Positions 902 through 16,000 of a DNA stretch of 64,000 nt are shown in pieces. This DNA is from a virus. The notes beneath the pieces are model-generated. The model did not search any database and was not told the DNA's origin. It was given only the letters and a program-made list of their open reading frames with translations. The stretch spans positions 3,346-67,345 of the IMG/VR virus record IMGVR_UViG_3300030419_003950. One strand, 5' to 3'. The position numbers and the translations under genes were made by a program. How positions within the stretch are numbered: the stretch's first letter is position 1; every line of letters begins with the position of its first letter.

Positions 902-1297
902 TTAGTATTTATTTTTCCATTTTTTACGATATTCTTGTTTTGCCCAATTCTCAGCTTTCTTTTCCCACTTATTATCGTGATATCTTCTGAATCCTTGGAA
1001 GTCTGCCATGGCATCTGCTTGTGCATATTTTTTTAGAAATTTTTTCAATCCATATTTCTTTACCATATCTGCATGATGTATTTCATGTAATACTGATATG
1101 ATAAATTCTTTGACACTTGGGTAACTTCTTCGTAACTTAATAGTATCTGTATCCCAATCGTAATCACCCTCAACACCTTTACTTGCAGTCATTTTTACTT
1201 TAGATTTTAATCCATAGTATTTAACTAATTCAGTAGCAATAAATTGGAAGTCTGCTCTTTCCATCATCAAATGTATATTAGTTAGTTTAGGTATCAT
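902..1297 (-). CDS. Small HEXXH metallopeptidase-like protein
   Basis: VLHEIHH motif plus downstream WEKKAE. Confidence 0.5.
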   Translation of the reverse strand: MIPKLTNIHLMMERADFQFIATELVKYYGLKSKVKMTASKGVEGDYDWDTDTIKLRRSYPSVKEFIISVLHEIHHADMVKKYGLKKFLKKYAQADAMADFQGFRRYHDNKWEKKAENWAKQEYRKKWKNKY

Positions 1298-1914
1298 TTC
1301 ATACCTTTAAATAAAGCTTTAGCTACTTTCTTACCATATTCTTTATCACTTGGATAATGTGCTTTTGCAATAATTCTTGATTCTGCAATATCATTTCCTA
1401 AACCAAGATATTCATTAGAGTTTCGTGAGTCAATAGAAGAAAGATACTCACCTAATAAATATCCTTGAATTGCATGTCCACTTGGAAACGATGGTGTTTT
1501 CATACTATCTAATTGTGTTCCATTTAAATCAATATCATAAAACTTTGCAATCTGATATGGTCTTGGTCTATTGTATTTATATTTTAATTCCATTATAAAC
1601 TTAATACTCTCTCTAACAATTTTTTTAAGTTGTTTTTTTGTTATGTTAGTATTATGTTTCTCTACAAGATTCATAAATACTTCAACAACATCATCATTTG
1701 ATTCAACAAATTCAGGATTAGGTTCAATACTTGCAAGATATTTAATTTCTTTTAAAGTTAAAGAAGAATCATTTTCTGGTGGTAGTTTTCTTGGTAAAAC
1801 TATATTCTCATCAAATATCTCTAATTTACGAGCCATTCTCTTTTTATCTTTTGGTCTAATACTTTCAGTATAAACCATATTTCTTAAATTTAATAATTCT
1901 TTTAACTTAATCAT
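1294..1914 (-). CDS. PAP2-family acid phosphatase / haloperoxidase-fold protein
   Basis: KYKYNRPRP, PSFPSGH and SRIIAKAHYPSD motifs. Likely start is MIKLKELL at 1914, in an ATGA overlap with the upstream stop. Confidence 0.85.
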   Translation of the reverse strand: MIKLKELLNLRNMVYTESIRPKDKKRMARKLEIFDENIVLPRKLPPENDSSLTLKEIKYLASIEPNPEFVESNDDVVEVFMNLVEKHNTNITKKQLKKIVRESIKFIMELKYKYNRPRPYQIAKFYDIDLNGTQLDSMKTPSFPSGHAIQGYLLGEYLSSIDSRNSNEYLGLGNDIAESRIIAKAHYPSDKEYGKKVAKALFKGMK

Positions 1915-2237
1915 TTTTTCTTCTTCTTCTTTCCCCAACTAAGTGGATTTATATTAAATTCCTTTTCATAAAATTTAACTCGTTCTTCAAGTTGTTCTCT
2001 TTCTTCTGCCTCTTTTGCAGAATGTCTTGCTACAATTTCAGTTATCTGAGTATTTGCCTCAGTAAAATCTTTTTCCAATTCAATTATTCTCATTTCTATT
2101 CTGTAATAAGAATAAATTAACATTCCCACTAAACTCAATATTTGAACCAGCCATTTCAAATTCAAACTAACGACCATATTGTCGCCTATCACCGTACCTT
2201 TATATGACCGGGCAGTGTCCTCTTTACCTATAGACAT
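1911..2237 (-). CDS. Single-TM coiled-coil membrane protein
   Basis: Hydrophobic WLVQILSLVGMLIYSYY followed by a heptad-like region; GGAG RBS. Confidence 0.6.
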   Translation of the reverse strand: MSIGKEDTARSYKGTVIGDNMVVSLNLKWLVQILSLVGMLIYSYYRIEMRIIELEKDFTEANTQITEIVARHSAKEAEEREQLEERVKFYEKEFNINPLSWGKKKKKK

Positions 2238-2246
2238 AATAAACTC

Positions 2247-2390
2247 CTATCTGTAAAAACCTGGTTGTCCTTGTTTTGGTTGTTTTGCTTTCCACTTTTT
2301 ATGTTGGTTAGCAGTTCTGCCTTCTCTTGCCCATTTGGCATTCAAAGCTTGTCTTTTTTGTTTTCTACTCTTTGCTGCTCTATTTGGCAT
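2247..2390 (-). CDS. 47-aa basic peptide
   Basis: Manual translation MPNRAAKSRKQKRQALNAKWAREGRTANQHKKWKAKQPKQGQPGFYR fills the gap between neighbours. Confidence 0.55.
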   Translation of the reverse strand: MPNRAAKSRKQKRQALNAKWAREGRTANQHKKWKAKQPKQGQPGFYR

Positions 2391-2625
2391 TTTTTCCCTT
2401 TATATAGTTTAAATCGTCTGTAATACGATTAACTTGTTCCAATAATTGTTCGTGTCTTCTATCTCTAATCTCATCACTACGATTCCATCGGTCAATTAAT
2501 TTAATACATATCTCTTCAACCTCTGATAATTTGCTTGTTAAAGATGATTGTAGAAATTTAATCATACCTATAAACAAGGTTATAATTACTCCGATTGCAC
2601 CATACTCTAAGTATTCCTCAATCAT
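2380..2625 (-). CDS. Holin-like single-TM protein (BhlA/UviB-like architecture)
   Basis: N-terminal EYGAIGVIITLFIGMI TM followed by a coiled coil. Confidence 0.4.
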   Translation of the reverse strand: MIEEYLEYGAIGVIITLFIGMIKFLQSSLTSKLSEVEEICIKLIDRWNRSDEIRDRRHEQLLEQVNRITDDLNYIKGKNAK

Positions 2626-2649: not shown

Positions 2650-3402
2650 TTATCTCCAATCCCATATTTTAAATGCATTATAAGTTACACCAAATCCTAC
2701 AACAGGCTCTGTCAATCCTGTTACTTGGTCATATGTTATACCAATAAACGGCCCTACACTTATTTGGTTCCTCGGTGGTTTAATTTTAAATGGACTACTT
2801 TTTCTACCATTCAACCTTAAACCATCAAATTGTATTGTAGGAACTTCTGCATAATACTCACCTTTTACTTCACCCTCAACAATCTTAGGTTCTCCGATTT
2901 CTAAACTACCATCAAAACCTAATTCAGTTTCAGAATCCACAATACTATCATTAACTATTGCAACACCAGTTCTACCAAATATTCTAAGGTAGGAACTTTG
3001 TGTACCAAACTCCTTTTCAAATGGAACTACACCAGCACCACTTGAATAAGAGTTGTTATTATCATAAATAGATACTTTTTGAGAAAGTTGTTTTTTGATA
3101 GTATCAAGTTGAATCTCAAAGTTATCCATCCTATTTTTTAATTCTTTGTTTTCTATACCACGAGTTTTATCATGGTCATGTAAATCCTTTAGTAAATCAT
3201 TATTTTGTTTTACTAAAATCTCAACAGAGTCTTGTAACTCTGTAATCATTACATCTTGTCTTGCAGAATCGTCTCTCAAGAATTCCATTTCTTCTTGAGC
3301 ATAATAATAACGAACTCCTACCACACATAATATAAAAAGTATGTTGAGAAAACCACCAATGACCCACTCTCTTCTTTTTTGTGGCCAATGTTTTAATAAC
3401 AT
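2650..3402 (-). CDS. Membrane-anchored coiled-coil protein with C-terminal amphipathic beta-hairpin (spanin-like candidate)
   Basis: N-terminal TM, coiled coil, C-terminal ISVGPFIGITYD...PVVGFGVTYN. Confidence 0.45.
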   Translation of the reverse strand: MLLKHWPQKRREWVIGGFLNILFILCVVGVRYYYAQEEMEFLRDDSARQDVMITELQDSVEILVKQNNDLLKDLHDHDKTRGIENKELKNRMDNFEIQLDTIKKQLSQKVSIYDNNNSYSSGAGVVPFEKEFGTQSSYLRIFGRTGVAIVNDSIVDSETELGFDGSLEIGEPKIVEGEVKGEYYAEVPTIQFDGLRLNGRKSSPFKIKPPRNQISVGPFIGITYDQVTGLTEPVVGFGVTYNAFKIWDWR

Positions 3403-3414
3403 ATCAACTCCTTG

Positions 3415-3942
3415 TTAATCAATATTTTTTATGGCGTCTTGGATAGCTTTTCTAATTGAACCACCCAATTCAGATTTACCAAACTCAACATCTTCTTGAA
3501 TTTGTAAACCAGCTGCTGATACCGTAGTGGTTGTTTCACCGATACCACGATAACTTTTCTGAGTACCCTCTTTGTTCTCAACAAGGTTAACCACTAATCT
3601 AACTTCAGTAGATTGGTTTCTTCTATTGAATATACCTGCTATACTAAATGCCTCATTTGGTTTACCAATATAAAGAACTTCTACATTCGCAGTAAAATCA
3701 GCATTATCATCTTCTACCAATACATATCTTGTATCTTGTAATTGTTCTTCAAGTAGTTGTTTTATACCTAAAGTTACTCTATCATCTGCAACACCTACAG
3801 ATTCATCAACTTTAACAAATTGTGATATTCTTAATGTAGGGTAATTTATATCCTCACCAACAACGGTTGGTTGTGGTATAGTTTGTCCACTAATAATAGT
3901 GAATATACAAAATCCTAAAAGAAATCTCATTGCTAATCTCAT
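3415..3942 (-). CDS. Exported CsgG/TolB-N-like fold protein
   Basis: Signal peptide then Q. The LEEQLQDTRYVLVE and SELGGSIRKAIQDAI pattern parallels the CsgG-like neighbour. Confidence 0.5.
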   Translation of the reverse strand: MRLAMRFLLGFCIFTIISGQTIPQPTVVGEDINYPTLRISQFVKVDESVGVADDRVTLGIKQLLEEQLQDTRYVLVEDDNADFTANVEVLYIGKPNEAFSIAGIFNRRNQSTEVRLVVNLVENKEGTQKSYRGIGETTTTVSAAGLQIQEDVEFGKSELGGSIRKAIQDAIKNID

Positions 3943-3951
3943 TTTCTTCTC

Positions 3952-4935
3952 CTAAAAGTATGTTCCGAACAATATAGAGTAAGTTGTTGTTCTTTCTCCA
4001 TAATCGTTCACAACCGTGTTATATCCCATACTGAATCCTAAATTAACTTTAAATGCCTGACTCAATTGAAAATCAAATGATAAAGTTGGCATGAGCATAA
4101 TAGGACTCTGTAATAATAAATATTGTTTACCTGAATTTAAACCCTCATAATATCTTAATAATGTATATGAAACATAATTTGTAAATGTCATTTTAAAACT
4201 ACCAAATTCTACAGGTGTCCTTAATCCATATAATACTGAAAAATTACCAAACCCATTGTCACTAACACTACCATATGATGCAGTTAACACAATAACTTCT
4301 GCATTTTTCTTTACAAGAGATTTTGCATATGATGATGATACTAACCAATCACTACCCTCAAATGTTTTAAAGAAAACACCTGATGCACTTATTACTTGGT
4401 TTTGTTTTTTTGCGAGAAAGTTTACTCCTTGACCATACGATGCATTAAATCTACTTAAATCATCTGTAAAACTAAGATTACCATCGTATCTTGATTTACC
4501 ATCAAAACTTTCTCGTGTGTAAATACTATTAAATGATGTTACCCAACTACTATCTACGGTTGGTGATGATTTTATCCCATAATTAACTTGAGAAACTTCA
4601 TTACTCACATCACTTTTATTAAATTGTTCTGTTGCATTACTAGCCAAAACCGATGAAAGTATTTCTTCTGCAACTCTAACTGCACAAGGAAACAAATCTT
4701 CAAAGTCATTATAGACTCTTTCTGCCCAAGATTCTAACTCTCCATTTAATACTTGTTGTAATGTGAAAAATTTTGATTTATTATAGTATGTAACATAGAA
4801 TCCACCATCTTGATTCTGTATATTGTAATTGTCTCTAACCAGAATTTGATTGCATGGGTCAATATAACTATATAAAAAGCCTTGGGCAGAGAGACTACTA
4901 CATAATAATAATATGTATAAAACTCTCTGCCACAT
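3952..4935 (-). CDS. Exported putative outer-membrane beta-barrel protein
   Basis: Signal peptide LSA-Q, alternating beta-strands, C-terminal ILFGTYF. Confidence 0.6.
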   Translation of the reverse strand: MWQRVLYILLLCSSLSAQGFLYSYIDPCNQILVRDNYNIQNQDGGFYVTYYNKSKFFTLQQVLNGELESWAERVYNDFEDLFPCAVRVAEEILSSVLASNATEQFNKSDVSNEVSQVNYGIKSSPTVDSSWVTSFNSIYTRESFDGKSRYDGNLSFTDDLSRFNASYGQGVNFLAKKQNQVISASGVFFKTFEGSDWLVSSSYAKSLVKKNAEVIVLTASYGSVSDNGFGNFSVLYGLRTPVEFGSFKMTFTNYVSYTLLRYYEGLNSGKQYLLLQSPIMLMPTLSFDFQLSQAFKVNLGFSMGYNTVVNDYGERTTTYSILFGTYF

Positions 4936-4940
4936 TCATT

Positions 4941-5579
4941 CTACCAACCTCTTCTGTCAATTGCCTTAATAACATTAACAACCGCAGTTTCCATAGCTTT
5001 GTTAGATGCAGAACTTAAAGAACTTTGATTCCATTCCATATTAGGATTTTTTAGAAATCCTTGACCTATGGTGGATGCTCTTCCTTGTCCACTACCAACA
5101 ACATACTGAGTATTCTCATTATTGATTACTTTAACTTGGATACCAACAATAGTTTCGTTTATTGTTTGAACTTTTCCACCTTTGATATCTTCTTTTAAGT
5201 TAACAGCGAAATCATAAATAGTTACATACGCAGTGTATTTGGTTTTCTCTATTTTAGCTTCGTTGGCTTTCAAATCATTTAACATAGATAATTGAATATC
5301 TCTATCCGCTTCTACGAGATTAAATCTTCCAATGAAAGAAATAACATTTGCAAGTTCTTGATTTAACCCAAATGCAACTCGTTTATCTCCAAGTTCTGGA
5401 TATCTTTCTTCAAGTTCTTTATTAAACTTAACATCCAAAATCTTTAGATTATCTACTTTTGTGATTTCCACTTCATCCAATGATTTTTGCTTTTCATACT
5501 CACCAACATATTGTTCGGTTGATACTGATGCAGCACATCCCATTAAAACCATTAAACTAAGTAGTAATAGTTTTTTCAT
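4941..5579 (-). CDS. CsgG-family lipoprotein
   Basis: Likely start MKKLLLLSLMVLMGC (lipobox) at 5579; GRFNLVE, VGIQVKVIN and GSGQGRA motifs are CsgG-like. Confidence 0.65.
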   Translation of the reverse strand: MKKLLLLSLMVLMGCAASVSTEQYVGEYEKQKSLDEVEITKVDNLKILDVKFNKELEERYPELGDKRVAFGLNQELANVISFIGRFNLVEADRDIQLSMLNDLKANEAKIEKTKYTAYVTIYDFAVNLKEDIKGGKVQTINETIVGIQVKVINNENTQYVVGSGQGRASTIGQGFLKNPNMEWNQSSLSSASNKAMETAVVNVIKAIDRRGW

Positions 5580-5580
5580 T

Positions 5581-5949
5581 TTATTTTCCTCTTGTTTCCC
5601 ATCCAGGTCTTGTTTTATCAAAACCTTTTTTATGATGAGATTTTTTTGCTGATTCATGTCCTATCCAAAAAGAAATACCACCAACAATTGCATAAGTTAA
5701 AATTTGTTTATGTTTTCTTGTTGGTTTCTTAACTTCATACTTCTTATGATGTAATGCTTTCATATGAGCTCTTTTATGAGCTTCTTCAAATCGTTTCCAT
5801 TCCATCATAGATTTATTTGCCATTTTTTGTTGGGCAAGAAGTTGTCTCATTTCTCTTTGTTCTTGTTTAGTAATTTCTTTATCAGTCTCCGTCTGTACAT
5901 CTTGTCCAAATAACAATCCAATGAATAATAACATTATAAGATGTTTCAT
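5581..5949 (-). CDS. Exported His/Lys-rich hypothetical protein
   Basis: Signal peptide LFG-Q and a late hydrophobic segment. Confidence 0.6.
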   Translation of the reverse strand: MKHLIMLLFIGLLFGQDVQTETDKEITKQEQREMRQLLAQQKMANKSMMEWKRFEEAHKRAHMKALHHKKYEVKKPTRKHKQILTYAIVGGISFWIGHESAKKSHHKKGFDKTRPGWETRGK

Positions 5950-5969
5950 AATTTTACCCTTTCCGGTTT

Positions 5970-6359
5970 TTATTTAAAATCTGCTAATGGGTCTTTTAAT
6001 AATTTCTCTAATCTTGAGATTTCACCTTTGAGTTTATCAATCTCATTCTGTAGTTTAATTATATCCCCATCATAAGACTTCACTTTTGGTGTTTTTAAAC
6101 CATCTACTTTTTCTCGTAGATACTTTAATTCTTCATCAATATTGTTAAAGTTATTGGTTACAATTTCAATATCACTTGCTTCTGCAAATCCTTGAACTAC
6201 TTCTTCCAATGAGTCAATACGGCCAGTAAAACTATACCAACCAGCAATAACGGTGGAAAGAAAAGTAACAATAGCAACAATATTCTGTATTGAGATTCCA
6301 AACTTTTTTCCTTTAACATCTTCTAATAGATTTTCTGCGTCTACTACATCTTTTGCCAT
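5970..6359 (-). CDS. Single-TM coiled-coil protein
   Basis: TM IVAIVTFLSTVIAGWY followed by a coiled coil; AGGAG RBS. Confidence 0.6.
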   Translation of the reverse strand: MAKDVVDAENLLEDVKGKKFGISIQNIVAIVTFLSTVIAGWYSFTGRIDSLEEVVQGFAEASDIEIVTNNFNNIDEELKYLREKVDGLKTPKVKSYDGDIIKLQNEIDKLKGEISRLEKLLKDPLADFK

Positions 6360-6376
6360 AACTTATCTCCTATTTA

Positions 6377-6433
6377 TTAATTGCAACAACCACATTCACA
6401 ATTATCACAATCACATTGTTTATAATTACACAT
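6377..6433 (-). CDS. 18-aa Cys-rich micropeptide (metallothionein-like)
   Basis: MCNYKQCDCDNCECGCCN with 7 Cys; GGAG 7 nt upstream; starts 1 nt after the PorV stop. Confidence 0.45.
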   Translation of the reverse strand: MCNYKQCDCDNCECGCCN

Positions 6434-6434
6434 A

Positions 6435-7304
6435 TTATATCTCCACATTTAATGTTAATAATAGTGTTTCTTTTAAAGGATGAGTTTCACTACCATTTAG
6501 CATACCCACTCCTATTTTATATTTATCAATTTTAAAATCTAATCCTACTGATGAATAATTTAATTGGTGTGTTACATCATTATAGTATCCTGCATTCACC
6601 CATAACATATTTTTCCAATTATAAGAAACACCTTGTCCATGAGTATGATAATTCTCATACAAGTTCCATTGATTATAAATAGTCCATTTATTTTTAATTG
6701 GAATATTAAAACCAACATTAACTGAAGCTGGTATTTCAGGTTCATACCCATTTATTTTAGTCACTACACCAATATTAGATACCATAAAATCTAAATTAAT
6801 TATTCCATATAATTTATGAAAATGTAATCCTGTATCAAATAACATACCTTCAGTTTTTTCAGTATGTAATGAGTGACCAACTACTTTACCTCTAAATCCT
6901 ATAGAGATACTATCAATTTTTTCACCTTTATATAGTAAGTTAGTTCCCCAACCAACAGATGCAACTATTGAATTTGGTGTAAAAGTACCACTAATAATAC
7001 CTGCATCATCTGCAATATTTTGTGCACCATAATCAAAGTATAAAAGTGAGTAATCTAATTTACCTCTTTTTACTTGAACATAATTAAATCCCATATCATC
7101 AACAATATTACCCAACCATTTTACATTAGTAAAACTTACTTCAGTTGTAGTATCTGTATTTAATAAGTTCATTGCAGGATTTCTAAATGCAAGTGATTGA
7201 TTACCAAGAATTGTTTCACTCGTAGTAGGTGATATTGTTAGAACACGATTTACTTGTCCAAACAAAGTTCCTATCATTAATAATCCTAATAATATTTTTT
7301 TCAT
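6435..7304 (-). CDS. porV: PorV/PorQ-family outer-membrane protein
   Basis: Signal peptide then Q; LTISP, NPA, KWLGNIVDDM, YFDYG, GTFTP, SIGFRGK and FDTGL motifs as in PorV. Confidence 0.75.
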   Translation of the reverse strand: MKKILLGLLMIGTLFGQVNRVLTISPTTSETILGNQSLAFRNPAMNLLNTDTTTEVSFTNVKWLGNIVDDMGFNYVQVKRGKLDYSLLYFDYGAQNIADDAGIISGTFTPNSIVASVGWGTNLLYKGEKIDSISIGFRGKVVGHSLHTEKTEGMLFDTGLHFHKLYGIINLDFMVSNIGVVTKINGYEPEIPASVNVGFNIPIKNKWTIYNQWNLYENYHTHGQGVSYNWKNMLWVNAGYYNDVTHQLNYSSVGLDFKIDKYKIGVGMLNGSETHPLKETLLLTLNVEI

Positions 7305-7411
7305 TTTTTATCCTCTATTTTTTCGGAAATCCAAATTATACCTTTAATTGTAAAATACATCGCAGGTAACATAAATATTAATATTCCGAAAAATGTTATT
7401 ACTTCTAACAT
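7301..7411 (-). CDS. 36-aa hydrophobic peptide
   Basis: MLEVITFFGILIFMLPAMYFTIKGIIWISEKIEDKK, with a TAATG overlap upstream and an ATGA overlap with porV. Confidence 0.55.
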   Translation of the reverse strand: MLEVITFFGILIFMLPAMYFTIKGIIWISEKIEDKK

Positions 7412-10161
7412 TATTTAACTACCGTAAATTTATTAGCTTTTATTTTTTTATCTGTTTCAAGAACAAATATATAAACACCTGGTTCTAATGTTTGGTGATT
7501 TTCATACACACTTACTTCAGGTAACCAAACACTTGGTTCATTTGTAAAATCAAATGTATGTATTCCTTGACCAACAACTTCATCTAATAAAGTTCCAACA
7601 TATTGTCCATTAGAATTCAGTATGTAAAGTTTTACATGTTCTTCTGTATCTATGAAGAATTGAAATTTTGTATTATCTTTAAATGGATTTGGATAATTGT
7701 AAGTAAGTTCATCATCTTCTGGTTCTCCACCACCGAATGCCCAATACTTATTCCATACCAAGACTTTACCATCTTGTCTTTCCATTAGTAAGTCATCACC
7801 ATTTGGATTACCTGCTGCATATTTACCAACAAATCTTATAGGAGCCTCAGTCCATTCAGATTCAGGGAAGTCTGCTCTAAACATTAATTTTAATGCATTC
7901 ATTTCATCACTAATCCAATAAGTTGATGGTGCATTACCTGGTGAATAATCTAAACCACCAAATGACAATCTTTGCCATCCTAAGTCATCTACCTCACCAA
8001 CATTTACATAAGTAAACCACGGTCCTGGTAAGTTTCCAGTCTTCATATCAATGAATTCTAATTCATTAACATTATACTCAACCTCAAATTCAAACCCAGC
8101 AATATTAACATCTACTGGTGTAAGTTTTAATGGAACTTCAATCATCTCACCACTCTGAACCCTTACGGTTGAATCTGCTGGGAATGATAATAATACATCA
8201 TGATTTGTTAACAATGATTTCATTGACATACGATTATTTGTTGGTGGTGAAGTTCTATTCCAAGTTGCTGGTGGGTTACCATTACCCCATCTATAAAATG
8301 TATCACCATTTAAAGATTGTGCAACTGCTGTTCCACTTGAATCAACTAATGTTCCAGTTAAATTCATATCACCTGTAAAATAATATGCCAAACTATCAAT
8401 TGTATAATCAGGATTTGCATCATTACCATATGTTGAACTACCAGCACCTAAATTAACAATTACGGTATCTAAACCTGTGATAACTTCATCCATCATATCA
8501 GGATTTGTAATCTCAATATATCCAAAATTTAATTCAGAATCTTCTTGGTCTAAATCATCATCATAGAAAATACTAAATTCTCTTTTTTGATTACGAGTTT
8601 CTTCATTAAATGTTTGATAGTAATTTCTACTTACAGATTGATTGTTTTCTTTTAAATTATCTGTCGTTGAAAAGTCTTCATAAGAGTTACCATTAAAGTG
8701 TGTATAATTAGTAAACACTCCACTTGTGTAAGCCCATAAGAAATATGTATCATTTAATTGAAATACATCATCACCATCAATATCACCAATGAAATATGAA
8801 GTTGGTGATAGAGTATCTATTTGTGCAATCTCTTTAAATTTACTACCTTGGAAATTAAATGATTTAATTGCATCATTTATATTAGTGATTGCATCTCTAT
8901 CTAATTCATATTGGTCGTGTGTTTCTATATCATCTGCAGCATCTGGTGGCCAGAATGAAATAGTATATCTATTGTTTCGTGGTAATTGAATATTATAATA
9001 TCCTTTATCATCTGTATATGTCCAATCATAATAAGATACATTTAGATATCCACGATTTACGGTTTCACCCTCTGGTGCAGAAGAGAATTTAGGTAATGCA
9101 TACATACCAGTAACACCCTCTGTAGTTTCTGTTTTCTTATGATAATAAAAAGTATCTGTATTATCACCAATAACATCATCAGATAAATCTTCATCTGTAG
9201 TGTTTGCAGTATTTGATACTTCTTCTAAGTTTTGCCAATTACTAACACCATTTGCATTTTCATCTAAATCAAACTTAACTTTCCAATAAGGATATTTGTT
9301 TCTTGTAAAAGTTTCACCCTCATCTTGGTCACCATCTTGGTTTGTATCTACCCATTCACCAATATATCTATAGAAACCTTCAACATCAACAAGTTTTGGA
9401 TGAAGTGTAATATCACCTCTTGCCCCACCATTGTCTGTTTCTTCAGTTCCCCAATTTCCATCTATATAGACTTTATAATCTAATAGATAATCATCAGATA
9501 CATAAGTATAGTATCCTGTTCCACCTTGATAAAGTGTTGCGATTTTAAAAGATTTAGGTTCAAAGTTATCTACCACATCTTCTATTTTAAATTCTAATTT
9601 TAATATTTGAGTTTCATTTCCGTTCCCATTACCGAATTCCATTTCATTCACATCATGAGAAACAGCAGTTATTCTCAACCAATCATAACGATTGTTACTT
9701 GTTGATATTTCATTATCTTCATCATCTAATGCATCATTATATCCAATGTCATCATATTGAACGACTTCATAAGAATAATCTGCATTTGCATTTTCATCAC
9801 CCTCAGTATATTGTGCTAAATGTGAACCAACCAATACTTTAGTGTCGTCATCATCCCAATCAATTAAATCATTATCAAATAATAAATCTAATCTAAATGT
9901 TGAAATATCAGCACCATTATCATCAAGTGTAACTTCCATTGTGAGAACACTATCTCTCCATGTATCAAAGTTATTATTATATAGTGCGACTGCACTTGTA
10001 TCGGAAGCAAGGAATTTATCCAAATCAATCGTTTCTGATTCTTTCCACCAAAATTTTGGTGTATCGTATGTACCTGTCTGTTTGATTCTAATTATCGGAT
10101 TTTGTGCGACGGCAGTCCCAATAAACCCTAATAATAAGAGCCAATTTAAAAACCTCTTCAT
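7411..10161 (-). CDS. Large acidic exported protein with cohesin-like and dockerin-like segments and a T9SS type-A/FlgD-like C-terminal domain
   Basis: Signal peptide AVA-Q; two cohesin-like segments; GDIDGDDVFQLND; C-terminal NYPNPF...PGVYIFVL...KFTVVK. Confidence 0.75.
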   Translation of the reverse strand: MKRFLNWLLLLGFIGTAVAQNPIIRIKQTGTYDTPKFWWKESETIDLDKFLASDTSAVALYNNNFDTWRDSVLTMEVTLDDNGADISTFRLDLLFDNDLIDWDDDDTKVLVGSHLAQYTEGDENANADYSYEVVQYDDIGYNDALDDEDNEISTSNNRYDWLRITAVSHDVNEMEFGNGNGNETQILKLEFKIEDVVDNFEPKSFKIATLYQGGTGYYTYVSDDYLLDYKVYIDGNWGTEETDNGGARGDITLHPKLVDVEGFYRYIGEWVDTNQDGDQDEGETFTRNKYPYWKVKFDLDENANGVSNWQNLEEVSNTANTTDEDLSDDVIGDNTDTFYYHKKTETTEGVTGMYALPKFSSAPEGETVNRGYLNVSYYDWTYTDDKGYYNIQLPRNNRYTISFWPPDAADDIETHDQYELDRDAITNINDAIKSFNFQGSKFKEIAQIDTLSPTSYFIGDIDGDDVFQLNDTYFLWAYTSGVFTNYTHFNGNSYEDFSTTDNLKENNQSVSRNYYQTFNEETRNQKREFSIFYDDDLDQEDSELNFGYIEITNPDMMDEVITGLDTVIVNLGAGSSTYGNDANPDYTIDSLAYYFTGDMNLTGTLVDSSGTAVAQSLNGDTFYRWGNGNPPATWNRTSPPTNNRMSMKSLLTNHDVLLSFPADSTVRVQSGEMIEVPLKLTPVDVNIAGFEFEVEYNVNELEFIDMKTGNLPGPWFTYVNVGEVDDLGWQRLSFGGLDYSPGNAPSTYWISDEMNALKLMFRADFPESEWTEAPIRFVGKYAAGNPNGDDLLMERQDGKVLVWNKYWAFGGGEPEDDELTYNYPNPFKDNTKFQFFIDTEEHVKLYILNSNGQYVGTLLDEVVGQGIHTFDFTNEPSVWLPEVSVYENHQTLEPGVYIFVLETDKKIKANKFTVVK

Positions 10162-10266
10162 GAGTCTTTTTCCTTTGTAGTTATTATAATCGTATCCCTG
10201 AACTTATGGGATTATGATGTAGCCTTAATTCAGTTCATTAATAAATATCATATATAAAAAAAATAA

Positions 10267-11280
10267 TTAGACATCAAAGCGAACAATAAATGTAGTATCA
10301 AGTTCCTTACTTAGTTTAACTGGTTTTGCTAACTTCCCTACTACCAACAAGTTATCCTTATTATCATACAACCCAATCTCTGAAACATATGGGTAGAAAT
10401 ATGAACTTGTTACGAATCCATGTTGGTCTTCTGTTGCTTCATATGATGTTTTAAAACTTCCTGTTCCTTCAATGCCTGGTTGGTCACCTGGTGGGAAAAA
10501 TAGGTGAACATTTTGAGTACCCTCTTTCAACATTATACTTCCACTTCTTCCTGCAGTTAAACTAATATTCATACTTTTATTCATTTTGTTTGCGGGAACC
10601 ATACATTCATAAAAATATTCATAATGTCTATGTGTTGCTTTATATTTTATATCAAAACCTGTTCCAAATCCAACATCTCCATATGAACCTGAATTATTTA
10701 CAACTGCTATTCCATGTTCATAGAAAATATTACCTACTTGAGAACCACTTCCATTGGCCAATACACCTTGACCTTGTGTAAAAGAACTTGATTTATATGC
10801 TGCAAAACTTGATGAATATGCGAAGTCATATAAATTACCATCACCATCATCTCTAATATCAAATGTTGTACCTCTTGAAGTATCACTTAGTTCAAATGTC
10901 AATGGTTTAATTTGTTCACCAAACACATCTTTTGCAATACTAAATACAGATGCACTTGTATGTAATTCTCGTTTGATTAATGTTGTGTCGGATTGACCAA
11001 AAGTATAGAGTGGATTTTCAATTTCATCACCATCCATCTTTGTTTTATAGTAAAGTTTATTTATGGTATGCCAAGTTGGTAATGCATAATAATTTGTATT
11101 TATGGAACCTGATGTGATTGTTGTAACCATATCAGAACCAGAATCATAATTATAAAGTGACTTTGAAACTGCTCTTACTGCAAAGAAACCACTTCCACTA
11201 TCGTTATTTGTGAAACTAAAAGTTTTATTGGTTTCAAATCTCTTGATGGAAACATTTTTTCTATCAATGTCTATGAACAT
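10267..11280 (-). CDS. Virion tail/baseplate-associated protein
   Basis: C-terminal SEIGLYD..LLVVGKLAKPVK is shared with the upstream paralogue; structural gene context. Confidence 0.55.
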   Translation of the reverse strand: MFIDIDRKNVSIKRFETNKTFSFTNNDSGSGFFAVRAVSKSLYNYDSGSDMVTTITSGSINTNYYALPTWHTINKLYYKTKMDGDEIENPLYTFGQSDTTLIKRELHTSASVFSIAKDVFGEQIKPLTFELSDTSRGTTFDIRDDGDGNLYDFAYSSSFAAYKSSSFTQGQGVLANGSGSQVGNIFYEHGIAVVNNSGSYGDVGFGTGFDIKYKATHRHYEYFYECMVPANKMNKSMNISLTAGRSGSIMLKEGTQNVHLFFPPGDQPGIEGTGSFKTSYEATEDQHGFVTSSYFYPYVSEIGLYDNKDNLLVVGKLAKPVKLSKELDTTFIVRFDV

Positions 11281-13046: not shown

Positions 13047-16000
13047 TTATTTTACTAATAGTTTAGAATCTCCTGGTTCTTTTGTAATTAATGTTGTTGG
13101 TGTAGTTACGGTAGTTTCTATTGGGTCTTCACCATCAGGAGAATTATTCTTTGTCATAGTACTACCAACAAATGGTTCTGTAGTACCTACACCATCATCT
13201 CTTGTGACTGAACCACCAACAAATGACCTATATAAATTACTATCATAATATACACTCTGATGTTGACTTGGTATATATGAAGAACTATAAGGTATATGTG
13301 CTGATGCACTTGCACTTGATGAATAAAAATATACCATTTCTTGATTATGTTCTGCTAATCTTGAACCACTTATATTTGGTTGTAATACTTCACCAAAGGT
13401 TGTTCCCTCACCACCTGATGTTACACTTGCAGTTGCATAATTGTATCCATATGCTGTTTTTTGGTCTACAACATTCAATTTTAATAATGTTGGTTGATTC
13501 AAAGTACCAAGTGAACCACTATTATCTTGGAATCTCAAATTCACTTCACTTTCATGATAATCAGAACTTCCACCTATATCAAAATAAATATCATCTCTTG
13601 ACCCACTTATGAATCTTGTTACTAATAATCCATCTTCATATTCACCTGCATTTTCATAATAACGATTATCATATTCAGGTCTATCCCCAACAATTTGTTT
13701 ACTTCTTTCCAAAATATTTGGTTCTATTAAAACACCTGTTGTTGCTTTACTTCTAGCAGGAACCCATTGTTTTAATTGTGTAAATACACTTGGGTCATAA
13801 TATGTTAGTATTCTTAAATAATCCCAAAAGTTATTAGGTCTTGAATACTTTTGCCAATATTCTGTTCTTAATTTTTGTAATCCTCTATATGATAATTTAT
13901 ATTGGTCTCTTGGGTCTCCAATATAATCATCAAAATTAAAATCTGCAATACTATACATTATATCTTCATTAATAACATCAACTGGTGAAAAATAAATACC
14001 AACCTTTTCACTATCTATTGGTGCAAAGTCTTGTGATGATTTTTCTCTACGCGATTCTGAAGAAAGATTACCAGTTAATGTAGTATCTTCAATTCTAATC
14101 TTTGTTGCATTTCTTCTCGTAGGGCCGATATTTGGAACCTTTAATTGTTCTTTATCAACTAAACTTCTAAATGTATTTGTAGTAAATCCATTTGCTGAAC
14201 CAGTTGTGTCGGTTGGTGCACTTATATAATAATTTTGTTTATTCGCAACATTTGTTACATAAGATGTTGTATTTAAATTAATATTATTATCAAGTGAATG
14301 TCTTATTAATAAGTCATGGTAAGATGAACTATAAGTATTACCATTATATGACTTAGGTGCTCTAACATGATTATTAAATATACTTTGACTTAATGGTTCT
14401 GACCATAAACGATATTCCATTAATGAACCACTATATCTTGCACCAAAGTTTGTATTTTGACCACCAAGATAAATATATTTTGAACCACCACTTCCAGTAA
14501 ATGCAGCATTTATTGCACTACTACTTGCATGTCCTATACCTGTTGTTAAACTTGAACTTGTTTGGAATTTAATTCTTTCTCGTGTTGAGTCATATTGTTT
14601 TGCAGTTAACTCATACTTTACATTTCTTGATGTCAAATCATCACTCATTGGAACACCACTTGCACTAATTCTTGTCAACATCACACTCCACATATCATCA
14701 TTATAAAATGGTTGTAAAGATGAAGTTATACCATACTCACCTGTTGATGCACTGATACTAAATTTTAAATATCCAAAATCATCTGCTGTTCCGTTGTCTT
14801 TTAAATGTATTGCCCAATCATTTTCTTTTTGTGCAATCACCATACTACCAGAACTTCCTACACTATGTGGTGTTCTAAATCTAAACTCTATTGTTTGTGG
14901 ATAAATACTATCATTATCGGTTGTCCATAATGTTTTTATATATTGTGATGCATGAAAATCTAATGCATATGTAAATTTTCTTTTTACTTCATAACTAACT
15001 CTTTCTTGATTATCTGGGCCACCATATTCTCTTACTCTTAATATTGTAGATGGTATACCATAACAATTTAATATACCCTTTAGACATCTAATTGAACCTT
15101 TACTCTTTACAAAAAATGGTAAATTATTTAATAATCGTTTCCATATTTCTTCAGTCACTTGTTCTTGTGGTGTTTCATATTTTGAACTACCATCTGCACC
15201 CTTGCCTAACAGATATTCTGGTAATATCATCAAGTCATTTCCATTTGCCAATTCTAACCCAAGTGATTTTGCATATGATGCAGCAATGTCTTTTGAAATA
15301 CCCTCTGATATATTAGGTGATTTAGTATTAATATCTGTAATATGTTTTGTGTATACCCATATTTCATCAAATTGTTGTCCTGACATATCCATAAATTCTA
15401 AGAAAGGATTGTTTTGAGTATCATCAACAACATGTAATGGTAAATTATTAACTAATCTATCTTTATTTTCAGTATCATAAATTGATGCACTTGATATCAT
15501 AGTATCAAACCAAGTAGTTGCTGCAGAACCTGTTGAATGAATTAATGTATAGGGTTCTGATGAATTAGATTTAGGCCATGTGTTATCATGATATTGCCCT
15601 GCAGACGAACTTACATAAGATGAACTTTCAAAATACATATAATGTTCAAATGGGTCAAAAGAATTGACAACTCTTTGTCTTTTATTTTCAAGTAATGAAA
15701 TTTCACCAGCAGATGATGAAATAGGAACCAAGGATTGACTTGATTTATTATATCCCTCAATCAACTCCACTTTCTTTTTAAAGTTTTTTATTCTTCTTTC
15801 TGCACTTGAGAAATGTACAAAATTACCAAAACCTATATCATCAGTTTGTAAATTAACATCTACTGATGTCCTATTAAATTCAGTATTAACTTGGACATCT
15901 AATAAACTACCACTAATTAATTTTCTTTCTATATCTTTATTAACCGAATCATCACTACCCAATAAACTTGTATGTGTTTCTAATCTTGTGGTTCTAAAGT

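Follow-up and report, generated by a model that had tools for sequence, protein, structure and literature searches.

PorV is described as the general carrier of type-A CTDs of the T9SS, and type-B CTD proteins of Flavobacterium johnsoniae have cognate PorP/SprF-like barrels that are encoded adjacently (PMC12618676, PMC10994853). In the solved translocon, the CTD sits on the loops of PorV, with which a near-invariant Lys makes contact (PMC10994853). Phages, too, have been reported to encode proteins of such systems. 'Cryophage' carries genes for type-A T9SS cargo proteins (Bellas et al., 2020, PMC7468147), and csgG/csgF ('curli', type VIII secretion) clusters are present in pelagimyophages (HTVC008M group) and in the Methylophilales phage Melnitz, the published ideas on their role reaching from aggregation to lysis timing (PMC7029224, PMC9004378). 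It should be noted, therefore, that phage T9SS cargo and phage CsgG are already in print when the locus considered here is judged, whose initial annotation stated that no description of such a phage system was known. This statement is too broad for the cargo and for CsgG/CsgF; as regards the remainder, neither a phage PorV-like gene nor the cassette described below was the subject of any paper in the literature searched.

The window analysed is a stretch of 64,000 nucleotides (positions 3,346 to 67,345 of IMG/VR record IMGVR_UViG_3300030419_003950). It is a real phage contig, as indicated by a baseplate wedge PHROG match, and a baseplate and tail block is common to the window, Flavobacterium phage immuto and phage Mel-JY01. 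The source is a large, widespread marine myovirus with a probable Flavobacteria-type host. Directly after the conserved tail genes lies the block of genes listed in Table 1, the named parts of which, like its position beside the tail genes, had been given correctly at the outset. We assign a probability of roughly 0.55 to the reading that this block is a conserved non-virion envelope cassette, with which the phage, exploiting the T9SS of its host, builds a complex in the outer membrane and on the cell surface.

Table 1. Genes of the block, in window coordinates and in the order of transcription
Feature	Position	Strand	Evidence
916-aa acidic secreted protein (cargo), cohesin and T9SS type-A CTD	7411..10161	-	TIGR04183, Pfam Cohesin
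289-aa PorV/PorQ-family outer-membrane barrel	6435..7304	-	NF033709, tree, complex model
18-codon Cys-rich micro-ORF MCNYKQCDCDNCECGCCN	6377..6433	-	position kept in some loci; membership uncertain
129-aa membrane-anchored coiled-coil protein	5970..6359	-	79–91% identity, 6 full-length loci
122-aa basic secreted protein	5581..5949	-	signal peptide LFG-Q; 32–64% identity
212-aa outer-membrane lipoprotein, CsgG/PelC fold	4941..5579	-	lipobox LMG-C, fold matches
327-aa outer-membrane protein, predicted 12-stranded barrel	3952..4935	-	AF2 model, pLDDT 55.5
175-aa secreted lipoprotein paralogue	3415..3942	-	ISG-Q, no lipobox; hhalign
250-aa membrane-anchored coiled-coil protein, probable block member	2650..3402	-	52–85% identity, 6 loci

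The gaps between successive genes are 105, 106, 75, 20, 1, 5, 9, 12, and 24 nt. The operon, which had been called tightly coupled, is thus tight from the gene for the 129-aa protein onward and looser around the cargo gene. Since the 129-aa and the 250-aa proteins are conserved together with the block, the unit reaches at least to position 2650; an earlier list of its parts did not contain these two inner-membrane-anchored coiled-coil proteins. The block of eight has five cleavable signal peptides, one lipobox and two N-terminal membrane anchors. All five SPI signal peptides are indeed followed by Gln at +1 (AVA-Q in the cargo, LFG-Q in the 289-aa and the 122-aa protein, LSA-Q in the 327-aa protein, ISG-Q in the 175-aa protein), a rule that is specific to Bacteroidetes (PMC5837995). 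The lipoprotein is encoded by the most conserved gene of the block (83–98% identity across loci); it and the 129-aa protein appear from their sequences to be under purifying selection, the identity of the adjacent tail proteins (337 and 344 aa) being 49–67%. In the 129-aa protein the anchor (about residues 20–45) is followed by a periplasmic coiled coil, and in the 250-aa protein, which is also found in group B (L021), anchor and coiled coil are followed by a C-terminal beta-rich domain ending in WDWR. The 122-aa protein (pI 10.2) is poorly conserved. The micro-ORF lies in the gap after the PorV-like gene; a Cys-rich ORF of 11–20 codons is found at this site in L004/L005, L007, and L009 but not in L008 or L010, and it is uncertain whether it is part of the module.

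The cargo has a pI of 4.11, with 163 Asp and Glu versus 63 Lys and Arg. Its CTD matches the whole model of the T9SS type A sorting domain (TIGR04183) at residues 823–914 with 28.5 bits, which is above the cut-off of 23 bits and bears out the type-A assignment, the score with Pfam Por_Secre_tail being 18.9 bits, under the cut-off of 27. All six orthologues match TIGR04183, and five of the six reach the cut-off. The CTD (823–916) bears an insertion of about 20 residues; its span is 92–99 residues here versus 75–78 in the phage group that has no PorV-like gene. A cohesin domain is located at about residues 655–800 (Pfam Cohesin, 26.0 bits, cut-off 24.1), and residues near 459–471 form a conserved EF-hand or dockerin-like loop.

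The 289-aa barrel matches the PorV/PorQ family model NF033709 over its full length (E 4e-21), although its 75.9 bits miss the cut-off of 90, and it stays far under the equivalog cut-offs of PorV (39.9 versus 250) and PorQ (57.5 versus 220). All nine phage barrels tested match NF033709, and four of the nine exceed the cut-off. In the tree, the 11 phage barrels are grouped in a single clade (support 100/99), which is separate from PorQ, from PorV2 and from a paralogue without a name; it is sister to the cellular PorV clade, with support for this position that is only moderate (90/84). Phage barrels have 278–291 aa, cellular PorV has 344–410 aa, and the barrel of the window is about 100 residues shorter. 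By sequence, then, the barrel belongs to the PorV/PorQ family and branches beside true PorV, in keeping with its first description as PorV-like.

Complex models, which show likeness only because a PorV–CTD complex has already been solved and may simply be reproduced by the prediction, seat the cargo CTD on the barrel loops with ipSAE values of 0.89, 0.89, and 0.88 in three runs, the best of three controls reaching 0.01 (58 of 80 solved complexes attain the ipSAE mark, as against 2 of 110 mismatched pairs). At least 97% of the contacts agree between runs, and the pLDDT of the partner is at least 75. [quoted passage not shown] Binding of the cargo CTD to the 289-aa barrel is thus predicted. In group C phages and in immuto the cassette has no PorV-like gene (0/10 loci), so that the barrel is not essential to the core module.

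According to our reading, the phage makes during infection a set of Sec-exported proteins that would assemble in the host envelope. We infer that the cargo depends on the host T9SS, through which it would cross the outer membrane by means of its type-A CTD. The shortened PorV-clade barrel would hold this CTD with its extracellular loops and may thus be a dedicated carrier or anchor, comparable to the cognate PorP/SprF shuttles encoded next to type-B cargoes, or else it may compete with the PorV of the host.

The remaining outer-membrane proteins probably form a second assembly. The true start of the lipoprotein gene is the ATG at 5579; a 238-aa ORF was rejected. Profile searches, which confirmed the PorV/PorQ and CTD matches, gave no Pfam CsgG match with the lipoprotein's own sequence, but 13 of 31 distant relatives match PF03783, and the best PDB sequence match of the family profile is Escherichia coli CsgG (E 0.02). 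With the structure model (pLDDT 84.4), Foldseek finds PelC (E 1.8e-8) and CsgG (E 1.5e-6), PelBC also being among the best matches, so that the modelled fold is nearest PelC. CsgG-type membrane hairpins are missing from the model, whose long hairpin has a charged tip. The designation CsgG-like therefore stands for a CsgG/PelC fold, and channel formation as known from CsgG cannot be transferred to this protein; of the interpretation in the initial annotation, the phage module, the type-A CTD and the PorV-family barrel (the barrel now with a model of CTD binding) are retained and the CsgG channel is not. The 175-aa protein, previously called a second CsgG-like protein, and the lipoprotein family are paralogous (hhalign 96.8%, E 2.7e-10). 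In the 327-aa protein, which ends in Phe, as had been noticed, the N-terminal domain contains two invariant Cys and is followed by a long helix and then by the predicted barrel. Its low-confidence model shows helices and then 12 long strands with weak matches to the FapF, EspP and intimin barrels, and at this pLDDT the 12 strands, the plug and the likeness to FapF and autotransporters are leads only. In two further phage groups a lipoprotein-type gene (CsgG-like 1) is followed by a barrel gene in 15/15 loci.

Plugged barrel, lipoprotein and soluble paralogue would thus make up the second outer-membrane assembly, with the lipoprotein placed beneath the barrel, as PelC is beneath PelB, rather than forming a CsgG-type pore, and with the two inner-membrane-anchored coiled-coil proteins spanning the periplasm towards it. 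The net outcome would be that both the surface and the outer membrane of the infected cell are remodelled, which may benefit the phage, for example through superinfection exclusion, grazer evasion or adhesion as suggested in the initial annotation.

To judge by the Gln rule and by the relatives, the host would be one of the Bacteroidota with a T9SS. The Flavobacteriales are the most likely order, as far as MAG binning can be relied on, since one of their MAGs, which also has its own PorV, includes a 9.2-kb contig with a 79% identical copy. A homologous cassette (gp013–gp019), whose annotation does not go beyond lectin, cohesin domain and hypothetical proteins, is found in Flavobacterium phage vB_FspM_immuto (MW353176), a cultured phage of Flavobacterium sp. 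LMO8. Shared with the window are a protein with cohesin and Por_Secre_tail, a small membrane protein, two CsgG-like proteins (the first 30% identical, E 2e-23), and a barrel with the same N-terminal YxYxDPC motif. Besides the missing PorV-like gene, immuto differs in its short cargo (243 aa) with canonical CTD, in the SPI signal peptide instead of a lipobox on the first CsgG-like protein, in a long low-complexity linker in the barrel, and in additional lectin-type proteins and a secreted nuclease; its cassette adjoins ribonucleotide reductase genes about 70 kb from the tail genes.

The main alternative, which we consider unlikely, is a device for lysis or for breaching the outer membrane, i.e., a spanin- or pore-like envelope-spanning complex at the end of infection, to which the T9SS cargo would be accessory. 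Indeed, an N-terminal anchor followed by a coiled coil, as in the 129-aa, 250-aa, 81-aa and 108-aa proteins, is the layout of i-spanins. The PHROG matches to Rz-like spanins, however, are near noise (E 0.004 and 0.009, the latter among the weak matches that are the only ones of the 129-aa protein), one covers the signal peptide only, and the lipoprotein is a globular PelC/CsgG-fold protein of 212 aa, not a short o-spanin. In group C locus L025, the barrel gene is directly followed by genes for a 75-aa membrane protein and for an Amidase_2 endolysin, and in L027 an endolysin with PG_binding_1 and GH19 lies two genes past the cassette; endolysins adjoining in two of the four loci whose flanks were inspected by eye (L021, L025, L027, L030) are as compatible with lysis as with display. 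Searches for five endolysin families gave no match in this contig or in its two relatives of 122 and 83 kb, all of them incomplete records, so that no link to lysis is visible in the window's phage group. A role in lysis timing has been suggested for phage CsgGF by Buchholz et al. (PMC9004378), but the immuto cassette lies beside genes of nucleotide metabolism, and lysing a cell requires neither a cohesin scaffold nor lectin-type neighbours nor a T9SS tag.

Less probable still is a channel of the PelBC, curli CsgG or FapF kind, made up of the two CsgG/PelC-fold proteins and the barrel and exporting a polymer or an unfolded polypeptide, by which the infected cell would make an extracellular matrix or fibre, with the cohesin protein as part of the matrix. 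The fold matches to PelC, PelBC and CsgG, the weak matches between the modelled barrel and FapF, an amyloid exporter, and the small, basic, secreted 122-aa protein agree with this, as does the idea of 'sibling capture' published for pelagimyophage curli genes (PMC7029224). Yet the cassette genes that were scanned include no recognisable polysaccharide synthase or amyloid subunit, the lipoprotein has no CsgG-type membrane hairpins, the barrel model is unreliable, and the cassette profiles match nothing in the HTVC008M curli cluster (see below).

A virion role of the proteins, as tail fibres or their assembly factors, is very improbable. The idea arises solely from the place of the cargo gene, next in line after three conserved tail genes (212, 344, and 337 aa), in the slot that in immuto and Mel-JY01 is taken by fibre and spike genes (tail fibre genes in immuto, a 954-aa gene in Mel-JY01). 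Virions assemble in the cytoplasm, whereas the products of the block carry the signal peptides, lipobox and anchors given above, and its two beta-barrels need the outer-membrane insertion machinery of the host. Moreover, the cargo has no similarity to the fibre regions of immuto and Mel-JY01 at E ≤ 1e-3, and the immuto homologues of most block genes lie far from the tail.

A misassembly fusing a host fragment to phage DNA, as might be suspected from gene families typical of bacteria (PorV/PorQ, CsgG, cohesin, T9SS CTD), is virtually excluded: the block and both flanks are syntenic in seven other IMG/VR viral contigs of up to 122 kb from different samples, the gene order is identical in a second, more distant phage group, the junctions are bridged by independent contigs (that of tail gene and cargo gene with 0 differences in record 24, 9488–11134), GC is even over the first 12 kb (0.29–0.33), and the lipoprotein family occurs in only 4 of 201 Flavobacteriales genomes, one of the four matches being a phage contig. 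The block is nearly whole (64–91% of sampled words) in 18 DNA runs. RNA contigs also match block genes; such matches do not prove transcription.

Besides the immuto cassette, four known systems can be compared with the proposed envelope cassette. Like the clusters of pelagimyophages and Melnitz, it is a marine myovirus operon with a CsgG-family lipoprotein and uncharacterised secreted partners. As far as those reports go, however, canonical CsgG (280 aa in HTVC008M) is paired there with CsgF in phages of Proteobacteria, hosts without T9SS, whereas the lipoprotein of the window has no CsgF and is accompanied by a soluble paralogue, a separate barrel and a cohesin T9SS cargo. The cassette profiles match nothing in HTVC008M gp013–gp018 and gp042 at E up to 10, so the two are not close kin. 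With PelBC (PDB 5t0z, 5t10, 9h80) and CsgG (4uv2, 4uv3) the lipoprotein shares location and alpha/beta fold, and its gene adjoins a separate barrel gene, just as PelC partners the PelB barrel; its sequence likeness, which is at profile level only, points to CsgG and not to PelC, and the scanned genes of the cassette include neither recognisable Pel synthesis genes nor a TPR scaffold. 'Cryophage' also is a phage of an FCB-group host with type-A sorting domains and presumed use of the host secretion system. Its cargoes are an endoglucanase, a GH39 and a PA14 protein in variable islands, and the part of the paper available to us mentions neither a PorV-like barrel of the phage nor a CsgG-fold protein nor any fixed cassette. 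The closest parallel to the cargo and its barrel is found in cellular T9SS, where likewise the gene of a Sec-exported CTD cargo adjoins that of a barrel of the carrier superfamily and where the solved PorV–CTD translocon resembles the modelled contacts including the C-terminal Lys. Unlike in these cellular systems, the pair in the window is phage-encoded, with an insertion in the CTD and a barrel that is shorter than cellular PorV and comes from a separate clade, and a type-A CTD, which is said to be served by a single host PorV, here has a barrel of its own.

The window covers 64 kb of a viral contig from IMG/VR that is linear, 67 kb long and, as estimated by CheckV, about 36% complete; all long open reading frames of the window lie on the minus strand, and its GC content stays near 0.30 throughout. 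A 658-aa protein is recognised by baseplate wedge PHROGs (E 2.7e-20) and shares, by tblastn, 47% identity with a protein of phage Mel-JY01 and 40% with the baseplate wedge of Flavobacterium phage vB_FspM_immuto (immuto). It is followed by genes for a 391-aa and a 120-aa protein, a giant protein (1619 aa in the window) and then proteins of 212, 344 and 337 aa. Since most of this gene order is common to Mel-JY01 and immuto and the baseplate wedge is recognised, the contig is a fragment of a large myovirus. Directly after these conserved tail genes comes a cassette of eight genes, the parts of which are listed below. All components named in the initial annotation (a cargo with a C-terminal sorting domain (CTD), a PorV-like barrel, two CsgG-like proteins and a second barrel) are present. 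The gaps between the genes of the region measure 105, 106, 75, 20, 1, 5, 9, 12, and 24 nt.

Features of the envelope cassette and of selected genes elsewhere in the window
Feature	Position	Strand	Properties
Nol-like carbamoyltransferase	60704-62194	-	PHROG 1601, E 6.6e-106
1619-aa tail protein	13047-17906	-	Vint/Hint domain at residues 292-423 (PF14623, E 2.2e-16)
Cargo	7411-10161	-	916 aa, pI 4.11, signal peptide AVA-Q
PorV-like barrel	6435-7304	-	289 aa, signal peptide LFG-Q, NF033709 match
Cys-rich micro-ORF	6377-6433	-	18 codons (MCNYKQCDCDNCECGCCN); fills the gap between the PorV-like and 129-aa genes
Membrane-anchored coiled-coil protein	5970-6359	-	129 aa; conserved with the block; missing from the initial list of parts
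Basic protein	5581-5949	-	122 aa; fifth signal peptide exposing Gln
Lipoprotein	start ATG at 5579	-	212 aa, lipobox LMG-C
Second barrel		-	327 aa, signal peptide LSA-Q, C-terminal Phe
175-aa protein		-	signal peptide ISG-Q
Membrane-anchored coiled-coil protein	2650-3402	-	250 aa; conserved with the block; missing from the initial list of parts
Small membrane-anchored coiled-coil protein	2380-2625		81 aa; near the PAP2 gene
Small membrane-anchored coiled-coil protein	1911-2237		108 aa; near the PAP2 gene
PAP2-superfamily phosphatase	1294-1938	-	214 aa, E 2.7e-9

Some further observations concern the surroundings of the cassette. The Vint/Hint region of the 1619-aa tail protein may, to judge from its domain match, be an intein-like or self-cleaving insert; the relatives of this protein in other loci align only from about residue 271–313 on, and as those loci end at or near that point they are uninformative on the N-terminal part. 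The product name of the carbamoyltransferase is also annotated in Pelagibacter phage HTVC008M. The PAP2-superfamily protein, which is encoded three genes past the cassette and has no obvious membrane segment, may act on an envelope lipid or carrier. A Cys-rich open reading frame of 11–20 codons is found at the place equivalent to that of the micro-ORF in the related loci L004/L005, L007, and L009, and is absent in L008 and L010; its product could be a metal-binding or disulfide-rich peptide, or the frame merely a leader. When ten proteins (products of seven of the eight cassette genes and of two neighbouring tail genes) were compared with PHROGs, eight had no functional match and only weak spanin-type matches were obtained. 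PADLOC gave nothing beyond noise from the coiled coil of the 129-aa protein. The sigma-70 promoter scan (51 sites versus 52.5 expected), whose models do not cover Bacteroidota promoters, and the terminator scan (1 versus 2.3 expected) were both uninformative.

The cassette is conserved among phages. When viral contigs were scanned with the PorV-like protein, 18 stretches matched, seven of them encoding a relative. Six of these seven loci contain the complete block, unchanged in gene order and flanked as in the window both upstream (by the tail genes) and downstream; the seventh is cut by the end of its contig. That the block could be a misassembled host fragment is contradicted by these shared flanks and by an independent contig (record 24), which bridges the junction of tail gene and cargo gene without differences. 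Across the loci the lipoprotein is 83–98% and the 129-aa protein 79–91% identical, compared with only 49–67% for the neighbouring tail proteins (337 and 344 aa), which indicates that the cassette is under strong constraint. Near-identical DNA (64–91% of sampled words) was found in 18 marine or seawater metagenome DNA runs. As for RNA, one metatranscriptome run (X19) includes contigs that are identical to stretches of four cassette genes, and another (X20) includes one contig over 2406-3174; it should be noted that contigs from RNA libraries are not proof of transcription and that stretches without cover carry no meaning.

Two scans with distant relatives of the lipoprotein gave 17 further viral loci, which were screened with profiles of the window families. 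In a first set (group B, L017–L023) the order is cargo, PorV-like barrel, first CsgG-like protein (lipoprotein family), second barrel, second CsgG-like protein (175-aa family), as in the window; P0250, the query of this group from the lipoprotein family, is 38% identical to the window lipoprotein. A PorV-like gene is present in all six group B loci that keep the upstream region, and L021 has the same tail genes upstream and a 240-aa anchor protein downstream. A second set (group C, L025–L033) and immuto encode a shorter cargo with cohesin domain and CTD, a small membrane protein, the first CsgG-like protein, a longer barrel and the second CsgG-like protein, and a PorV-like gene was found in none of these ten loci. 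The first CsgG-like gene is followed by the barrel gene in 15 of 15 loci of groups B and C whose contig continues. The CTD spans 92–99 residues in the groups with a PorV-like gene versus 75–78 in the PorV-less group, so that the larger CTD and the additional barrel occur together.

In immuto, which was cultured on Flavobacterium sp. LMO8, the tail genes are some 70 kb away from the cassette, whose neighbours are ribonucleotide reductase genes; this location argues against a role in the virion. Among 50,697 phage records only the four of immuto match the lipoprotein (Mel-JY01, whose recorded host is cyanobacterial, does not), and neither the PorV-like protein nor the second barrel has a tblastn match in this set. 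Secreted non-specific DNA/RNA endonucleases with signal peptides are encoded beside the cassette in immuto (L011 3139-3717) and two group C contigs (L030 11805-12404 and L027 980-1564), the one from L030 matching Endonuclease_NS with E 1.1e-20. After the group C cassette (L027 12233-12946) follow further exported proteins, namely one that is DUF481 barrel-like and others of GEVED or lectin type, the latter with a common end of the form ...RTGY(R/N)N. The protein families of the cassette fall into hundreds of sequence clusters from marine metagenomes, with versions in at least three phage groups, among them a cultured Flavobacterium phage. The envelope cassette is a genuine phage feature, both conserved and abundant.

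[quoted passage not shown] Its N-terminal Sec signal peptide, MKRFLNWLLLLGFIGTAVA followed by Gln, was read directly from the sequence and is kept in all six orthologues. At the other end, residues 823-914 of 916 match positions 2-71 of the 72 in TIGR04183, the type-A T9SS sorting domain, with 28.5 bits (cut-off 23); this model is matched by six of six cargo orthologues and its cut-off reached by five. The proposal of a type-A CTD is borne out by this full-length match, the Pfam CTD model PF18962 (Por_Secre_tail) being only partly covered with 18.9 bits, below its cut-off of 27. Lys908 and Lys911 are invariant in the six sequences, and Lys911 lies within the predicted interface with the barrel. 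The cargo also matches Pfam Cohesin (PF00963) with 26.0 bits (cut-off 24.1), the aligned model positions being only 7-54 of 139; the relatives from immuto and L027 score 36.6 and 30.7 bits, respectively. Residues 459-471 form an invariant loop, GD(I/V)DGDD..QLND, which we take to resemble an EF-hand or dockerin calcium loop; Pfam Dockerin gave no match in the cargo at E ≤ 1. The loop and the cohesin domain hint at self-association or partner binding. A search of PDB sequences with the cargo and with the PorV-like barrel found nothing meaningful.

The PorV-like barrel matches NF033709, the PorV/PorQ family model, over its full length (E 4e-21) with 75.9 bits versus a curated cut-off of 90. All nine phage barrels tested match this model, four of them above the cut-off (94.4, 95.1, 90.1, and 115.7 bits), and none approaches the equivalog cut-offs for PorV (250) or PorQ (220): the window barrel reaches 39.9 bits with the PorV model (NF033710) and 57.5 with that for PorQ, and the best PorV score of a phage barrel is 71.1 bits, against 371–560 for cellular PorV controls. 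In 13 Flavobacteriales genomes the family model has 35 matches. The tree was calculated from 39 rows, 28 cellular open reading frames (leaving out the truncated L049, the phage copy L063 and five matches without locus) and 11 phage proteins (leaving out L005 and L006 as duplicates of L004, and also L012 and L018). In this unrooted tree the 11 phage barrels form one clade (support 100/99), sister to a cellular clade of 12 members (90/84), which is PorV as judged from the 371–560 bits of four of four members tested. The other clades are PorQ (two of two tested pass), PorV2 (one row), an unnamed paralogue and a long FadL-like branch, and the phage barrels fall outside the PorQ, PorV2 and unnamed-paralogue clades. 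They are also shorter (278–291 aa) than the cellular proteins (344–410 aa). Because of tree position and length, the phage barrel is, as far as sequence can tell, a shortened relative beside PorV and not inside the PorV clade.

The mature barrel (residues 17-289) was modelled together with the last 105 residues of the cargo, each from an alignment of six sequences. The ipSAE was 0.89, 0.89, and 0.88 in three runs, whereas the best of three controls had 0.01; 58 of 80 solved complexes and 2 of 110 mismatched pairs attain this mark, counts that are rough since our own alignments were used. The contacts of the runs agree to at least 97%, with a pLDDT of the partner of at least 75. On the barrel the predicted contacts recur every 30–55 residues or so along the chain, as for loops on one face; on the CTD they include the start YNYPNP, the strand LEPGVYI and the end ANKFTVVK with Lys911. 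In the solved translocon of Flavobacterium johnsoniae, as described in PMC10994853, the CTD sits on extracellular loops of PorV, which a near-invariant Lys near the C-terminus touches. As such a complex has already been solved, the model, which places the CTD on the barrel loops, shows likeness to that complex and not binding of this pair.

The lipoprotein had been called one of a CsgG-like pair. The window protein itself has no match to Pfam CsgG (PF03783) at E ≤ 1. An exhaustive search of protein representatives gave 103 matches at E ≤ 0.001, and in an alignment of the protein with 30 full-length relatives 13 of the 31 sequences match Pfam CsgG (best E 1.9e-17) and 5 match LpoB; the top match of the alignment profile among PDB sequences is Escherichia coli CsgG (E 0.02). 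The 175-aa family aligns with this profile in hhalign with a probability of 96.8% (E 2.7e-10), from which it follows that the two proteins are paralogues; against the PDB its own profile gave nothing meaningful. The AlphaFold2 model of the lipoprotein is confident (pLDDT 84.4, pTM 0.75) and is matched in Foldseek by PelC 5t0z (E 1.8e-8), the PelBC exporter 9h80 and CsgG 4uv2 (E 1.5e-6, TMq 0.47–0.54), then by LptE-like proteins and FlgT. The protein is thus a putative outer-membrane lipoprotein with the CsgG alpha/beta core fold, PelC ranking above CsgG. It falls short of E. coli CsgG by about 65 residues, the two amphipathic hairpins with which each CsgG subunit contributes to the transmembrane barrel are absent from its model, and its sole long hairpin (116-154) has a charged tip, NLKEDIKGGKVQTINE. 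Given this length and this tip, a CsgG-type membrane pore looks beyond its ability. Of the CsgG-like pair, the core fold and the paralogy remain; the membrane hairpins and a Pfam CsgG match in the window protein are missing, and no cassette protein has a Pfam or NCBIfam match to CsgF, CsgE or CsgA/B.

PelC forms a lipoprotein ring beneath a separate barrel. The cassette resembles this system in having a lipoprotein of PelC fold and an adjacent barrel gene (15 of 15 further loci), a likeness of fold and layout only, and differs from PelBC in that no Pel polysaccharide synthesis gene or PelB TPR domain was recognised among its proteins. Judged from the models, the lipoprotein is closer in layout to PelC than to CsgG. 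The 327-aa family of the second barrel comprises 532 metagenome clusters, belongs to no Pfam family and has two invariant Cys in the N-terminal domain. Its AlphaFold2 model, of low confidence (pLDDT 55.5), has an N-terminal hairpin and helices, one of them 25 residues long, followed by 12 long strands, and its weak Foldseek matches are the 12-stranded pore-plugged barrels FapF (E 4.5e-4, TMq 0.33), EspP and intimin. The predicted likeness to FapF-type barrels, like the protein-atlas matches, is a lead only.

As to the host, Gln after the signal peptidase site is described as specific to Bacteroidetes in PMC5837995 and is noted for Porphyromonas phage proteins in PMC10367356. The sole match in the genome collection is a 9.2-kb contig in a Flavobacteriales MAG. 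The MAG encodes a PorV of its own (496 bits); where a phage contig is concerned, binning provides weak evidence. The lipoprotein family occurs in 4 of 201 Flavobacteriales genomes, one of these being a phage contig, a rarity that identifies it as a phage family rather than a common host gene. Weak matches to the profile of the phage lipoprotein (E 1e-12 to 2e-16) come from three cellular proteins of 308–311 aa in Flavobacteriales genomes (L014, L015, L016), two of the three having lipoprotein-type signal peptides; these proteins may be cellular relatives that gave rise to the phage family.

What the cassette does can be read in more than one way. One reading, display on or remodelling of the cell surface, draws on the T9SS tag and cohesin domain of the cargo, on its dedicated barrel and, in group C and immuto, on neighbouring genes for lectin-type proteins. 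In Flavobacteria, host T9SS adhesins serve as phage receptors and as gliding machinery. In a more far-reaching reading, to which we assign a probability of only about one in eight, the CTD-loaded phage barrel would occupy the host SprA translocons, plant a phage cohesin scaffold and stop export of host T9SS adhesins, resulting in superinfection exclusion, while the PelC/CsgG-fold ring, the plugged 12-stranded barrel and the inner-membrane coiled-coil stalks would constitute an undescribed envelope-spanning apparatus acting late on the outer membrane in place of classical spanins. The cassette can alternatively be read as a lysis device. This would account for its anchor-plus-coiled-coil proteins and for the weak PHROG spanin matches, among them that of the 129-aa protein (E 0.009), which has an i-spanin layout of N-terminal anchor and periplasmic coiled coil; the spanin match of the lipoprotein (E 0.004) is confined to the signal peptide, and this 212-aa protein is globular. 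Endolysin genes adjoin the cassette in L025 (Amidase_2, E 3.3e-19) and L027 (PG_binding_1 plus GH19), two of the four loci whose flanks were inspected. In the window contig and two related records, all incomplete, the endolysin families PF00182, PF01510, PF00959, PF01464, and PF13539 have no match, PF00182 being without match also in every control genome. Of the initial interpretation, a conserved phage cassette with T9SS cargo and PorV-clade barrel stands, whereas a CsgG-type channel is not borne out, the membrane hairpins being absent.

T9SS, which serves secretion and motility, is a hallmark of Bacteroidota, and Flavobacteria play a key part in degrading algal material and in colonising particles. 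A phage equipped with a cargo as well as a carrier barrel of its own would, as far as the literature searched shows, be the first virus to encode a part of the T9SS machinery and not only to use it. Should the cassette alter the cell surface of Flavobacteria during infection, it could have consequences for aggregation, attachment and competition between phages at sea. The pair of cargo and barrel is also a compact natural test of how T9SS carriers recognise a CTD.

The initial view that such a phage system is undescribed is correct only in part. A search of the main texts in the full-text literature yielded no article that describes a PorV-like gene in a phage, or this cassette, but a phage-encoded T9SS cargo is reported for 'Cryophage', where PMC7468147 terms it a unique occurrence, and csgG/csgF clusters are published for pelagimyophages (PMC7029224) and phage Melnitz (PMC9004378). 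The curli cluster of HTVC008M gave no match to the cassette profiles at E up to 10 and is not close kin of the cassette. The PelC/CsgG-fold pair with its barrel has no described counterpart in phages of Bacteroidota. For the cargo and its barrel there is a cellular precedent: as stated in PMC12618676, type-B CTD cargoes pair with adjacently encoded PorP/SprF shuttles, type-A CTDs being said to be served by PorV alone. The type-B cargo with its adjacent PorP/SprF shuttle is the closest cellular analogue, and the phage T9SS cargo with its PorV-clade barrel is a new version of these known cargo-carrier pairs.
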